The notes: generated by a model from the sequence alone, not told the origin. A stretch of DNA of 45,553 bases from Reclinomonas americana ATCC 50394 (GCA_048213135.1 PS015298.1:71761-117313), one strand, 5' to 3'; shown: positions 5,401 through 44,800, counted from the stretch's first letter. Made by a program: numbers and translations.

Positions 5401-8400
5401 TCTCTTCTACTTTGACTCCACATTCAGACCGGTGCCGCTGGCGCAGACGTTTGTTGGTGTGAACGAAAAGAATGTGCTCCGCCGGCAGCAGGTGATGAAC
5501 GAAATCTGCTACGAAAAGGTGTGTGACACTGCTGTCCTTTGTCTGCAGGTTTGTCGCGTCTCACATTTGTCGCAGGTGCTGGAGAGTGTCAAGGAGGGCT
5601 ACCAGGTCATGGTGTTTGTGCACTCGCGCAAGGACACGGTGAAGACGGCGCGCGCTCTGATCGACATGATTGCCGACAAGGGAGATCGAGGTGAAATCGC
5701 TATTATGGAGAGATCGTTCTTGCCTGTGCATCGTCTCATCGTTGTGTGCGTGTCGCAGAATGGTTCAACTGCACTGAGCAAATCGAGACGTGGGTGCTGC
5801 GGCGCATGGAGAAAGCTCGCTCGCCCGAAGTTCGGCAGTTGTTTGACCATGGCTTTGGCGTCCACAATGCCGGCCTTCTTCGCCAGGACCGCGACTTGAC
5901 AGAGAAGCTGTTTATGCAGGGTGCCATCAAGGTACTCGAGCAGTCGGTGATGTCATGCACACTGAAGCTCACTTGTGCGTCCCGTCGCAGGTGCTGTGCA
6001 CCACCGCCACTTTGGCGTGGGGCGTCAACTTGCCGGCCCACACGGTCATCATCAAGGGCACACAGCTCTACAATGCCGAGCAAGGCAAGTTTGTCGACCT
6101 TGGCATGCTGGACGTGATGCAGATCTTTGGGTATGCGCATGTGTTGTTCACTCCTCCATCCTCTCTACGCTTTTGCTCAATCCGCTTGTGCAGTCGTGCC
6201 GGTCGACCGCAGTTCGACACGACAGGCGAAGCTGTGCTGCTCACCTCGCACGACAAGCTCGACCACTACCTCGGCATGCTGAGCGCGCAGATTCCGATTG
6301 AGAGTCAGTTCTCCAAGGGTGCGCTGATGCACCGCTCCTGGTTGTTCTTTCGCACACTTGCACTTATTCACCCTCACGCGCAGCACTGCCCGACCACCTG
6401 AATGCGGAAATCTCCCTCGGCACCGTCACCAATGTGCGCGAGGCCATCCAGTGGCTCTCCTACACCTACCTCTACATCCGTGCCATGAAGAACCCGATGG
6501 CGTATGGAATCACATACGAGGAGAAGGTCAGCACGACACAAAAAGAGAGCCTCACTTGTGCAGATTTACTGACCGCCTCGCAGAACCAAGATCGCTTCCT
6601 GCACGAATTCCGTCAGAAGCTGATTCACGACGCAGCCAAAACACTGGATCAGGCTCGCATGATTCGCTTCGACAAGCGAGTTGGCACACTGGCCGCCACC
6701 GATCTGGGACGAGTGGCAGCGCAGTACTATGTGCACCACGGCACGATTCGCATGTTGCGTGTGGGGAAGAGGATTGACATGCTAACTGCCATGCTTGCTC
6801 ACGCACGCACAGGTGGACAACGGGCCTTACGCGCTTCATGACGGACGAGGAGATTCTGAAGGTGGTCTCCACTAGCCAAGAGTTCGAGAACATGCAAGTA
6901 CGCGACGAAGAAATGGAGGAGCTGGACGAGCTGATGGCGCGCGCATGCCCCGTGCGTGTCGGCCACGGAGTGGAGAATCGCGAGGGCAAGACCAGTTGCG
7001 ACGCACAGGAGTCGCTGCTTCATTCCGCGCTGAATGCTCATCTGTTGCTTGTCCCAGATGTGTTGCTGCAGGCGTACATTTCACGCGCCCAAGTCAACTC
7101 GTTCTCGCTCGTGTCGGACTGCGCCTTTGTCACGCAGTCGGCTGGGCGGTGAGTCGTTCTCCAGCACCTGCTCTCGTATTCTCATCAACTGACGCTTTCT
7201 CGTGCAGCATTCTGCGCGCGCTCTTTGAGATTGCTCTGCGTCGCGGATGGACGCTGATGACGTATCGCACGCTGACACTGTGCAAGGTCGCGGAGAAGCG
7301 CATTTGGGACTTTTTGCACCCCCTGCGCCAGTTTGAGGTGCTGCCCGAGTCCGTGCTGCACAAGCTCGAGTACAAGCGGGTGAGGCGGATGTGGGCAGGC
7401 CGTGTAAGGTCTTTGTTTTCTTACACTCTTGCATTCCACGACGTAGGCCACCATTCAGGATCTGCGCGACATGAATGAGCACGAGATCGGTCACTTTGTG
7501 CAGAATCAGCGTTCCGCGTCCACCATTGTGCGCTGCGTGCAACAGTTCCCCGTGTTGAACTTGGAGGCCACTGTGCAACCCATTACGCGATCCATTTTGC
7601 GCATGCAAATTCGTGCGTCACTCCCTTCACGTCCATGATTGTTGTTCTCCAAATGACACAGTCGTCGTCGCGCAGGCATCACCAGCGACTTTGAGTGGAA
7701 CGACCGCTACCACAGCTCCGCTGAGCCGTGGTGGATTCTGGTGGAGGATCCCAACAGCGAGAACGGCGTGCTGCATCGCGAGTACTTTTTGCTGAACAAG
7801 TTGCGCGTGTGATTCGACATGAACTCTGTCCTCCACCCTCGTTCCTCAGCTGTGCACGCAGGAAGGAGCGACGGGATGAGCACAAGATGGAGTTCACGCT
7901 TCCCATTCAGGAGCCGCTGCCGCCGCAGGTTTGCAGCATCCTTCCTTACTACTGTCTCCCTCTTACTCACAGCCACATGCACACAGTACCTCATCCATGC
8001 CGTGAGCGAGCGCTGGCTGCACGCAGAAACTGTGCTCCCGGTCTCCTTCCAGCACTTGATCCTGCCGCAGCGTCACGTGCCGCACTCGACGCTGCTGAAG
8101 CTGACTCCGCTGCCGGTGACGGCGTTGCAGAAGCGCGAGTACATTGAGCTGTACAAGTACGACCATTTCAACCCGATCCAGACGCAGGTGAGAATGGGGA
8201 GAAGAGGGAAAAGGAAGTGGGGGGAGATGGGGGAAGGGAAAGGTCATAGAAGAGAAAGAAGGGATGAACGAGAAAAAGAAGAGAGAAAGAAAGAATGAGA
8301 GAGGGAGAGAGAAAAAAGAAAGAAAGAAAAGAGAGAGAGAGAATGAAAGAATGAGAGAATGAGAAAGAAAGAGAAATGGGAGGAAGGAATAGGAGAAGGA

Positions 8401-41854: not shown

Positions 41855-44800
41855 TTAGCAAGTATTCCACGTCGCTGCGCGCCGGAAGCAGTCAGAAACG
41901 TGATAGAAACTCGCAACTGCTCCCCCCACAAAAACGCAAACGAAGAACCTCAAGCGTTTGCCAAGAGCTGGCGGCAGCGGAGGCAGTGGTGAACCGGCGG
42001 CTGTTGCCACAAAGCGTCGCAACAGCTGAACAGCCTCCGACGCAATATCGTGCAGTGCATTGGTTCGCGCGGCGTTCCACTTGGCGTCGGGGGAGCCGGG
42101 TTCGAGAATGACGGAGCGGAACTGCAGGCGGTCCATCACGTCGACGGCGTTTTCGGCCACGACAAGAGTGGAGGTGTGGGACTGCAACAAGGAAAAGAGT
42201 GGAGAGAGGGTGGGGAAGGGGAAGGGTGAGGGAGAAAGGTGTGTGCGTGTTTGTACGTGCGAGGATGCAGCACCTTGGTTTCCTCGGGACCGAGGGTCAG
42301 TGCCTGCGACCAGAAGGGAGAACAGTGAGATGGGACTCACGGGAACAGGCACCGTTGCACGCACCGATGAGCACTGATCTAGGGCGTTTTCAAAGGCGGC
42401 CGAGTTGGTGTAGCAGCTCGCCAGGTGGTTGTGCAGCTGAATCAAGGCCGGTATCCGTTGCTCGACGATAGCAGCGTCGGTTGAGTCGGCGAGGTGGCGC
42501 AGGTGGGCAAGGGACTGGGTGAAGAAGGGGAAAGGGCAAGGGGTAAGGGCAGAGGAAGCAGCGAGAAAAAGAATGGAGAGGGAAAGAGATGAAAAGGGAG
42601 GGGAAACGAGGGGACAAGAGAGAGAGAGAAGCAGTATGGAGGAAAAGGATGAAAAGGCAGCAAAGGAAGAGAGAAGGACATGAGGAAGAAAGAGCAAGTT
42701 GAGAGAAAGAAGGGAGAATGGAGATAAGAGTGTGAAGAAGTCAGTAGGGGGGAAGGGAGGGCAAGGAAGAGACGAAGAATGAGAGAAAATGTAATAATAG
42801 CCAGGGAGACAAGGGCAACGGAGAAGCAGAGAGAGAGGAGAAAGGGGCACACGAGGTAAAAAGAGCGCATTCTCACCTTGTTGAACAAATCCAATGCCTC
42901 AAGAACTTGTTTCCTTCGCAGATGGTCGGCGCCACGACTGCCCGCAGAAAATGTCAGTCTGAAAGAAGCACAACACATGCCCGAGACGAAGAAGAGTGCA
43001 CCTTTGAAGCTCCTTGGCGCGTGACAAAATGTCGGCGTCACTCTGCGCATCACCAACGTGTCATCATTAAGCAACCACCTCAGCGAGACCCTCCACGACA
43101 ACCAACCTGCGTCACATCCACTGAGGCCTCGGCGGGCGGAATCTGACTCCTCATCCGTTCCACCAGCTCGCGAGCCTCCAGCCGCTGTCCGCGCTTGTAG
43201 AGGTTGGCGGCCAGGTTTTCGACGGCCGCCAGTGTGTCGGGGTGCGTGGGACCCAGCAGGCGTTCCCGACCGAGAAGTGACTCGCGGAACAACGCATCGG
43301 CCTCGTCACACTTGCCAATGTATGACAGACACGTGGCGAGGTGCGACATGGAGGCGAGGCTGTCGAGGTGCAGCGGACCGAGCACCTGTCTCCGCATCTC
43401 GCAACACCGGCGAAGCAAGTCGGCGGCCTGGTGCAACCGTTCCTGGCGGAACAGGCAGATGCCGAGGGTGCTGAGAGTGGCCAGCGTGTCGCTGTGCGCC
43501 TCGCCAAGCGCCTTCTGCTGCATGGCCAGACATTCGAGAGCCATCTTCTCCTGCTCCTTGCGCCGCCCCTGCTTGCCGAGGCACACACTGAGGTTGAAGA
43601 GTGAGCGCAGGGTGTCGGGATGCTTCTCGCCGAGAGAGCGAGTCTGCAGATCGAGACACTCGCGCGTCAGGCGCTCTTGCAGCTCACGATCGCCCAGTTC
43701 GCCAACACAAGGCTGTATACATAAAAACATCGAATGAGTGACCACAGCCGTAAAAAGTCAACCACCCTGCGCAGGAGGAAGAATTGCTTTCTCCCCACCA
43801 AGGTCTCTGCCTCCTTCCATCATCAGTAGAAAGACATAAAAGAGAGAGAGAGAGAAAATGACAGAGAAAGAGAAAGAGAGAGCGAGAGGCTGACAACAAC
43901 ACTCATTTCTTTCTACACTTGCACGCGGCACGCAACTCCCAAATTAGTCATCGTGGTCAGCGTGCCGGGATGGTAGTTGCCGAGCACCTCTCTCCTCGCC
44001 TGCAGACATCGCCGTAATAGGCGCTCCTCACGCACCAACAAGCCGGCCTGGCCCCAACAGTACGCCTCCTGGTGCAGCGCAAGCAGCGAGTCCTCTGTCT
44101 CGCGACGCGTCGATGCACTCTCCTCATCGTCGACACCCCACAGTTCCATGTGGTGCACTTGATGCCAGGCACGCGCCGCGTGCTCCCAGTCCCTCCGTAA
44201 CTGCTGCACGCGAGCCACACACTTCAGGCGCCACACACGCTCTGCGCCCTCCGCCTCGCCCGCCTTGCCGTCGCGATGATCGATGCGCGCCAGCACTCGA
44301 TTGCAGCCGTTCACCAAGTCAAAGGCACACGTGGCCACCGTGCCCGTGTCCACCAACGTCGCCAGCTCGAGGAGACCCTTCAGCGTCAACAACGGCGTGT
44401 ACTGGCCCGCTTGTGCTGACCACAGTCCGTCGTCCTCACACAGCGCCTGCCACAGCAGGCCCATGGGCGTCAGTAGACTCTGCGCGGCCTCCAGTTGGCG
44501 ATTCCGGTCGCGACCACCCAGCGAGCCGACCAGCGCGCACATGAGACGCATGAGTGAGCGACGAGTGAGGGCGTACGGCTTGCCCTTGCGCCAGGCCCGC
44601 AGCCACTCCACAGCCAGCGGGTGCGCGCGGTAGTGCAAGGAGGACTTGCCGGGGCGCGGTGGCAACAGCAGCACGTGCTCAATCACATTGCCGCCACTCT
44701 GCGCATCGGCGCGCAACATGCCTGTGGCCACCAGCGACTCGAGAGCAACTTGGAAGGGTCCGTCGATGCGATGCCAGGTGCCGCTGTCCAATTCCAGCGT

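Follow-up and report, generated by a model that had tools for sequence, protein, structure and literature searches.

A predicted second class of 5′ splice sites, GTTGCG, tied to the last exon base in intron-rich nuclear genes of Reclinomonas americana

Introduction

Few features of eukaryotic 5′ splice sites are conserved as strongly as a purine at position +3 and a G at +5. The shifted register in which some human 5′ splice sites are recognised reportedly goes back to Roca and Krainer in 2009. For atypical human 5′ splice sites the +1-shifted register is experimentally established, and noncanonical registers of all kinds account for ~1–2% of the 5′ splice sites in a curated list, according to the sections of Tan et al. 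2016 (PMC4856993) that are used here. In the portion of Roy and Bowser 2022 (bioRxiv 10.1101/2022.06.08.495308) drawn on below, GUUUGU donors are described together with a U1 5′ end ACAAAC in Entamoeba, and GUGCGC donors with a U1 5′ end ACGUAC in Mastigamoeba; Physarum is reported to carry modified U1 variants next to standard ones, and Thecamonas and Mamiellales favour C at +4 and keep the standard U1. Exon-side and intron-side signals have also been described as trading off in a seesaw (AG//GUNNN versus NN//GURAG; PMC11732430, in excerpt). Here, we describe the introns of a 45,553-nucleotide stretch of Reclinomonas americana ATCC 50394 (GCA_048213135.1 PS015298.1:71761-117313), hereafter the window, in which the commonest predicted donor, GTTGCG, has U at +3, C at +5, and G at +6, and obeys a sharp rule on the last base of the exon.

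Results

Junctions in this single 45-kb window were placed by sequence comparison and gene modelling, and by these predictions the ordinary GT-AG introns of U2 type have, in GTTGCG(T), a genuine second major class of 5′ splice sites. Models were built in three steps. A dynamic-programming parser combined codon log-odds with an acceptor/branch heuristic, its donor knowledge being limited to GT or GC. Two rival models of a helicase gene were then aligned with 10 homologs and, later, with six closer metagenomic homologs. Finally, the remaining genes were parsed with a donor model whose sole training set was the 30 homology-checked introns of the helicase, and the resulting models were tested against independent registers of paralogs, tetratricopeptide repeats (TPR), and leucine-rich repeats (LRR). 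Of the 88 modelled introns in the curated set, homology checks cover 30 and a paralog or repeat supports 16, while 25 are model-only and 17 uncertain; the main counts are based on the 71 introns left after the uncertain ones were dropped. Introns are named below by their donor position, and a slash marks the exon–intron border (or, in protein, the junction).

The hexamer GTTGCG occurs 58 times on both strands of the window, and 24 of these occurrences are intron starts in the curated models, which makes it the commonest donor hexamer (GTTGCG 24, GTGCG 11, GTGAG 10, GTTT 6, other 20). It is also the most frequent donor hexamer of the donor-free parse, where it begins 10 of 89 introns, versus 1.1% of the GTNNNN hexamers in the window. 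An earlier note on this DNA had listed 23 such donors, and every one of them lies at the position and on the strand claimed. The remaining one is a candidate at 42023 on the minus strand that was absent from that list; here the donor-free parse chose the rival donor 41948. Overall, ~4 of 10 modelled introns have T at +3.

The base preceding GTTGCG is A in 10, C in 7, T in 6, and G in 1 of the 24 introns, the G standing before 30854, the same single exception among 23 that the earlier note had reported. The GTG[CA]G donors, which the note had described as mostly following G, do so in 17 of 21 introns (Fisher p = 1.6e-7 for the difference). When donors were split by class across the window, after the genome-wide split by the +3 base that the note had proposed, G was found at −1 in 35 of the 47 introns outside the GTTGCG class against 1 of 24 within it (Fisher p = 6e-9), and the proposed tie between two donor classes and the last exon base was thus borne out. 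The difference is present in the homology-checked helicase gene taken alone (0/6 versus 20/24, p = 3.5e-4) and persists when the 17 uncertain introns are included (GTTGCG being then 24 of 88; p = 2e-8). Looked at from the exon, 23 of the 35 introns behind a non-G exon end use GTTGCG, and only 1 of the 36 behind a G does.

Codon usage does not account for this. With the codon-position G frequencies of the window (0.36, 0.18, 0.40), 8.0 G would be expected before the 24 GTTGCG donors and one was observed (P = 0.0007); among phase-0 GTTGCG introns there was none in 11, despite a third-position frequency of 0.40 (P = 0.0036). Introns outside the class deviate in the opposite direction, with 31 G in 43 against 14.9 expected. 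The "other" donors, whose intron side is weak, show strong AAG/ exon ends (G at −1 in 18/26, A at −2 in 13/26, and A at −3 in 15/26).

Six of the 23 listed junctions are fixed to the base by homology, eleven are supported by a paralog or repeat register, and six are model-only, as is the candidate 42023 (Table 1). The donor-free parser had recovered 10 of the 23; at the other 13 it chose nearby in-frame GTs or left the sequence unspliced. All six helicase GTTGCG junctions are gap-free against the 10 homologs, among them the KTNVLLQ, PILEV/IVSR, and PVD/VHIQG junctions for which the earlier note had invoked protein conservation. Among the six metagenomic homologs, gaps within six residues of the junction were found in none at 6754, 6995, 9180, and 9422, in two at 7800, and in one at 12333. 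Left unspliced, 6995 would introduce a 21-residue insertion relative to all homologs; the rival donor 7809 (for 7800) would add three residues absent from every homolog, and the rival pair 12338/12414 (for 12333) would delete four.

Outside the helicase gene, splicing of 18740/18682 preserves the LRR register LxxLxLxxNxI (IRCLSF/SGNDV), and that of 43936/43713 preserves the 42-residue TPR period exactly (16 + 26 residues), in agreement with the TPR argument of the earlier note. After removal of 27819/27742, GLR/NGAKS aligns gaplessly with the paralog sequence GNMGAGKS. Intron 23146 is required for a change of frame; where it lies, the alignment with the paralog is gappy, and the counterpart of intron 35391 is close by. 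Intron 35391 itself, near the position matching 23146, has a T-rich tract followed by GAGCAG at its 3′ end. A likely 36-nucleotide (nt) micro-exon at 31569–31604 (plus strand) is needed by 31605; both introns around it, 31500–31568 (GTGAGT) and 31605–31670 (GTTGCG), carry complete splice signals. What the predicted junctions establish is that the class exists, where it is cleaved with respect to the motif, how abundant it is in the window, and that it depends on −1; the common 3′ signals and the class switches between paralogs, described below, belong here too.

Two other cleavage positions were considered and rejected. A GC-AG donor three nt downstream (GTT/GCG) would leave one extra residue relative to homologs at 9180, 9422, and 6995. 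With cleavage at G/TTGCG and a correspondingly slid acceptor, the next exon would have to start with G, which it does in just 6 of 24 cases; this position is also excluded by 6995 and 9180, where the next base is a homology-fixed A.

In their remaining signals the GTTGCG introns resemble the ordinary ones. All 24 start with GT, 21 end in CAG and three in TAG (CAG in 19 of 21 GTG[CA]G introns); median lengths are alike (71.5 versus 65 nt), and 21 of 24 versus 17 of 21 introns have a branch-like CTNAY in the last 50 nt before the 3′ splice site, at a median distance of 20 nt in the GTTGCG class. The motif extends to GTTGCGT, with T at +7 in 19 of 24 introns and an A-poor +8, which mirrors +6 (T in 16 of 21) and +7 of the GTG[CA]G donors. 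Donors of the form GTGCGT carry G at −1 in 8 of 11 cases.

Two familiar sources of unusual introns were tried and set aside. U12-type introns have a RTATCCTT donor and a TCCTTAAC branch site; the donors here are not RTATCCTT, no TCCTTAAC branch site was found, and the 3′ signals are those of the ordinary introns. Mobile introns (introners) were sought by all-against-all blastn of the 71 intron bodies, which gave 95 matches at E ≤ 0.01. The 20 of these that were listed are short and mostly connect the long repeat-bearing introns 8188, 11025, and 35777; since there is no family of short GTTGCG introns among the matches listed, the class is not read as introner copies.

Intron positions are common to paralogs of just ~23–25% identity, and donor class could be compared between them. 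It is the same in both copies of 29186/30100 (genes E and F), of 23485/35777 (D and G), and, less clearly, of 23146/35391. It differs between 28005 in gene E (g/GTGCGT) and 31830 in F (a/GTTGCGT), between 24037 in D (g/GTGAGG) and 36721 in G (a/GTTGCGT), and between 23836 in D (c/GTTGCGT) and 36523 in G (c/GTAAGT). The classes are thus predicted to interconvert, along with the last exon base.

Donors related to GTTGCG by one mismatch are rare (just 2 among 88 modelled introns). The relatives mentioned in the earlier note were recovered: GTTTCG at 18933, and a third donor type, GTTTG(N), at 4453, 7929, 24662, and 25383 (plus strand) and 28471 (minus strand), the first two homology-checked. The GTTTG donors follow G at four of the five sites; 28471 follows T. 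Six more copies of GTTGCGTG, at 3813, 14137, 16716, 17060, 24754, and 34846 (plus strand), all stand after A or T in poorly modelled or upstream regions, and may be unrecognised donors of the GTTGCG class.

Table 1. Predicted introns and genes of the window. Support is given for GTTGCG introns as homology, paralog/repeat, or model only; positions count from the first base of the window.
Feature	Position	Strand	Last exon base	Intron start	Length (nt)	Phase	Support	Gene and remarks
GTTGCG intron	6754..6812	+	t	GTTGCGTG	59	2	homology	helicase; gap-free against 10 homologs
GTTGCG intron	6995..7057	+	a	GTTGCGAC	63	1	homology	helicase; GKT/NVLLQ
GTTGCG intron	7800..7861	+	a	GTTGCGCG	62	2	homology	helicase
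GTTGCG intron	9180..9256	+	c	GTTGCGTC	77	0	homology	helicase; PILEV/IVSR, exact homolog match
GTTGCG intron	9422..9492	+	t	GTTGCGTT	71	0	homology	helicase; PVPVD/VHIQG, gap-free
GTTGCG intron	12333..12397	+	t	GTTGCGTG	65	0	homology	helicase
GTTGCG intron	18682..18740	-	c	GTTGCGTG	59	0	paralog/repeat	TerD-LRR gene C
GTTGCG intron	19205..19271	-	a	GTTGCGTC	67		model only	in-frame rival donor 19277 (GTGCCA)
GTTGCG intron	23146..23221	+	t	GTTGCGTG			paralog/repeat	acceptor uncertain: 23221, 23236 or 23275
GTTGCG intron	23485..23571	+	c	GTTGCGTC	87	2	paralog/repeat	donor-free parse; homologous to 35777
GTTGCG intron	23836..23908	+	c	GTTGCGTC	73	2	paralog/repeat	column and phase match paralog 36523
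GTTGCG intron	27742..27819	-	a	GTTGCGTT	78	0	paralog/repeat	
GTTGCG intron	29091..29186	-	t	GTTGCGTT	96	0	paralog/repeat	column and phase match paralog 30100
GTTGCG intron	30100..30651	+	c	GTTGCGTG	552	0	paralog/repeat	N run 30541-30560; donor-free parse; paralog 29186
GTTGCG intron	30854..30920	+	g	GTTGCGTC	67		model only	sole case after G; donor-free parse
GTTGCG intron	31605..31670	+	c	GTTGCGTC	66		model only (donor)	acceptor position common with paralog 28253
GTTGCG intron	31830..31900	+	a	GTTGCGTT	71	1	paralog/repeat	column and phase match paralog 28005
GTTGCG intron	33351..33421	+	a	GTTGCGTT	71		model only	helicase-trained donor model
GTTGCG intron	35391..35462	+	a	GTTGCGGC	72		model only	in frame, no stop codon
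GTTGCG intron	35777..36375	+	a	GTTGCGCG	599	2	paralog/repeat	donor-free parse; paralog 23485
GTTGCG intron	36721..36786	+	a	GTTGCGTT	66	1	paralog/repeat	phase matches paralog 24037, at most 2 columns off
GTTGCG intron	38121..38196	+	c	GTTGCGTC	76		model only	TAG acceptor
GTTGCG intron	43713..43936	-	a	GTTGCGTG	224	0	paralog/repeat	TPR gene I
Candidate extra GTTGCG intron	41875..42023	-	t	GTTGCGAC	149		model only	
One-mismatch relative	18863..18933	-	a	GTTTCGCT	71			GTTTCG; LRR register LTTLLLT/KNKIQLL kept
Comparator ordinary intron	27945..28005	-	g	GTGCGTTT				gene E; homologous to 31830
Comparator ordinary intron	24037..24124	+	g	GTGAGGCA				gene D; homologous to 36721
Helicase gene	~4342-13360	+						two-cassette Ski2-like, ASCC3/Slh1-type
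Gene B								RhoGAP / coiled-coil protein
Gene C	18121-20862	-						TerD domain (Pfam E = 8.6e-10) joined to LRR
Gene D	22315-25540	+						paralog of gene G
Gene E	25943-29267	-						head-to-head paralog of gene F
Gene F	29920-33618	+						head-to-head paralog of gene E
Gene G	35310-38294	+						paralog of gene D
Gene H								protein with borealin-N match
Gene I								TPR_10/12 protein

The window is eukaryotic nuclear DNA with ~57% G+C in its gene-bearing parts and seven N runs, and holds nine densely spaced, intron-rich genes (Table 1). The helicase has a motif that matches ASCC3-type rather than Brr2-type homologs, and the introns of its gene are very dense, 30 in ~5.2 kb of coding sequence with a median length of ~65 nt. 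Its closest full-length relatives, an amoebozoan transcriptome protein, plant proteins, and metagenome contigs, are 55–57% identical; the best named relative, from Soliformovum irregulare, is ~55% identical, the same as plants. A metagenome scan with the helicase model returned 80 loci, with a top full-length identity of 57%; the reading frame of this best relative is uninterrupted, and therefore it offers no orthologous helicase introns for comparison.

Genes D and G belong to an unrecognised family marked by FRFxFGSVR...RHY(M/V)L and EIRFxxHSNxY, for which two scanned exon stretches gave no Pfam match. Genes E and F (227 identities over a 986-column alignment) have in common a C-terminal LVEWLL and a P-loop-like GxxGAGKS that is degenerate in E. 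Searches at E ≤ 0.001 found no homolog of the 579-residue exon of gene E among proteins of 318–1014 residues, nor any of the first exon of gene I within the length bands covered. The fusion of TerD and LRR in gene C is an unusual pairing for a eukaryote.

A search with Rfam gave no matches to small nuclear RNA (snRNA) genes at the gathering threshold within the window, and no transfer RNA was found in it. At E ≤ 1, Rfam returned just weak matches to microRNA and small nucleolar RNA models, which lie at 22431–22609, where a (GA)n tract gives way to a (CT)n tract. The long hairpin that this sequence forms (−81.9 kcal/mol, z = −3.7) explains the weak microRNA-model matches on both strands; the sequence is probably a mere microsatellite palindrome inside a long intron. 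Long purine-rich GA/GAA-type microsatellites and N gaps, with a G+C content of 30–41%, are seen at 8190–8600, 1–4000, and 10000–11450; such tracts and gaps occupy the few long introns and the left end of the window.

Discussion

We regard the observation, made on predicted junctions, as solid, and propose for its mechanism major-type donors that would be either register-shifted or separately recognised. The split between GTTGCG and ordinary donors suggests splice-site recognition in two registers one base apart. Recognition of the GTTGCG class in a register shifted by one base is our tentative preference, to which we give a little less than an even chance, and we infer both the pairing register and any involvement of U1 from sequence. 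The class would be used where the exon offers no G at −1. G+1 of the intron would then take the place that G−1 of the exon holds in G/GTGCGT, opposite U1 C9; the U at +2 would remain unpaired, UGCGU would pair as positions +2 to +6 normally do, and cleavage would stay 5′ of GU. With U1 C9 held by G+1, an exon G−1 would be useless, and the missing −1 preference would follow. In evolution, an intron would pass between G/GTGCG and H/GTTGCG (where H is not G) by acquiring or dropping one T, with the final exon base changing as well.

Pair counts agree with such a shift. Against a U1 5′ end of human type (oligonucleotide table in PMC4856993), which may differ from that of the host, GTTGCG donors form 6.6 ungapped pairs in the +1-shifted and 4.3 in the canonical register; the ordinary donors form 5.1 and 7.8, respectively. 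The earlier note had proposed shifted or bulged U1/U6 pairing, or variant snRNAs: for U1 pairing, the shifted alternative is favoured by these counts, by the −1 data, and by the +7/+8 mirror, and the bulged one is disfavoured by the absence of a −1 preference. The unifying motif G-K-TGCG offered in that note is incomplete, because the GTTGAG counterpart is never a donor.

The last point is one of several that weigh against the shifted register. If a single recognition unit were shifted, GTTGAG donors would be predicted, and there are none among 20 GTTGAG occurrences, compared with 24 GTTGCG donors (Fisher p = 1.1e-4), or among the 88 modelled introns, though the ordinary donors split almost evenly between GTGAG (10) and GTGCG (11). 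The duplexes predicted with the human-type U1 are very weak for GTTGCG, at a mean of −0.85 versus −7.3 kcal/mol, and pair counts do not explain why H/GTTGCG occurs 23 times and H/GTG[CA]G four (~6-fold). Of the 34 GTTGCG hexamers that are not donors, five follow G, and relative to them the depletion of G at −1 is not significant; some of the 34 may be unrecognised donors. In addition, seven of the 24 GTTGCG introns are model-only, and all come from one window. The missing GTTGAG and the weak duplexes would be eased if the U1 of the host had G opposite +4/+5, as that of Mastigamoeba reportedly does; alternatively, a second U1 complementary to GUUGCGU could ease them.

An alternative, possible in our judgement but rather unlikely, is a dedicated recogniser of this kind: complementary to GUUGCGU, it would be either the sole U1 of the host, its 5′ end remodelled to the type ...ACGCAAC..., or an additional U1-like snRNA. 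Perfect intronic pairing would free the site from the exon G, and GTG[CA]G, GTNNG, and GTTTG donors would pair worse and need G at −1. The near-invariance of the motif (24 exact GTTGCG, 19 of them followed by T, and 2 one-mismatch relatives among 88) speaks for it, and the obligatory C at +5, seen in the lack of GTTGAG donors, would be explained by a sequence-specific complement. Precedents for co-evolved U1 5′ ends exist in Entamoeba and Mastigamoeba, with Physarum reported to have both variants, in the cited part of Roy and Bowser 2022; according to the same part (bioRxiv 10.1101/2022.06.08.495308), however, Thecamonas and Mamiellales favour C at +4 yet keep the standard U1, and a dedicated recogniser does not predict a depletion of G at −1 below codon expectation. 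Similarly doubtful, in our estimate, is a dual donor system in which an exon-independent, invariant GUUGCGU class with its own snRNA would stand beside G/GUG[AC]GU. That snRNA would be a second U1 variant or one U1 5′ end used in two fixed registers, and moves between the classes would be one-base insertions or deletions coupled to the last exon base. If this is true, the major spliceosome would have its own analogue of the U2/U12 split, which would cover about a third of all introns.

The classes could instead reflect the later stage at which U5 loop 1 and the U6 ACAGA box act, through a local seesaw between exon side and intron side (AG//GUNNN versus NN//GURAG), the extra U being looped at the active site. 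In the excerpted text of PMC11732430, 5′ splice sites in general are known to show an anticorrelation of −1 G with the intron side, and the "other" donors, with G at −1 in 18 of 26, behave in this way. GTGCGT, which has the full intron-side consensus, nevertheless carries G at −1 in 8 of 11 cases, and simple compensation therefore fails; the GTTGCG class also lacks the +5 G that is the hallmark of the U6-type class. We consider a later-stage effect unlikely. Less likely still is a bulged-U register, in which G+1 and one U would pair with U1 C8 and A7, the other U would bulge out, and GCGU would pair as +3 to +6. The motif can be read as GT-T-GCGT, and a bulge at +3 (or +2) is described for human cells in the legend to Figure 1C of PMC4856993; but a bulge would leave U1 C9 free and so predict a −1 G preference at least as strong as that of ordinary donors, contrary to the observed 1 of 24. 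It is most improbable, finally, that the class is an artefact of gene models, the true donors being neighbouring GT or GC dinucleotides and GTTGCG merely lying near intron starts. In-frame alternatives do exist within 30 nt of every site (95 for the 24 sites, including the GC donor three nt downstream), and the seven model-only sites are open to such a reading. Homologs, however, reject the alternatives at six of six helicase sites, as the registers of paralogs, TPR, and LRR do at some other sites, and chance cannot put one hexamer at 24 frame-compatible intron starts.

Should RNA data and a genome-wide survey confirm it, the class would offer a large-scale example from nature of donors recognised separately or in a shifted register, as well as a system in which to ask what fixes cleavage when the U1 and U6 registers disagree. 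Gene finders that use a single donor matrix would then place a third of the introns wrongly in genomes of this kind. A whole-word, full-text literature search for GTTGCG(T)/GUUGCG(U) gave nothing on splicing among the matches listed, which by their titles and abstract starts concern telomerase, primers, and a TLR ligand. The text of Roy and Bowser, in the part used here, does not mention GTTGCG; the Thecamonas, Micromonas, and Mastigamoeba logos of that work might show T at +3.

Several described systems share part of the pattern. Like U12-type introns, the class has a near-invariant donor heptamer without exon-side preference; unlike them, it has a different donor and branch and the 3′ signals of ordinary introns here, and it is far too abundant. 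As in the seesaw (PMC11732430, in excerpt), exon-side and intron-side signals are anticorrelated and classes switch locally in evolution; here, unlike there, the classes differ by an inserted base and the loss of +5 G and not by the strength of the match in a single register. With Entamoeba and Mastigamoeba, as covered in the cited part of Roy and Bowser, the window shares donors that depart from the standard in having a pyrimidine at +3 or +4; it also contains GTGCG-type donors, and its G/GTTTG donors resemble the Entamoeba GUUUGU consensus. Those species have one dominant consensus, whereas here two motifs of different length are partitioned by the −1 base. Closest is the shifted register of human sites as presented in the cited sections of Tan et al.: in both, intron G+1 would occupy the pairing place of exon G−1, downstream pairs would form one step later, cleavage would remain at GU, and the site would be independent of −1 G. 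Unlike the human shifted sites, those of the window consist of one invariant motif with a required C at +5, used by 24 of 71 predicted introns and tied to the last exon base.

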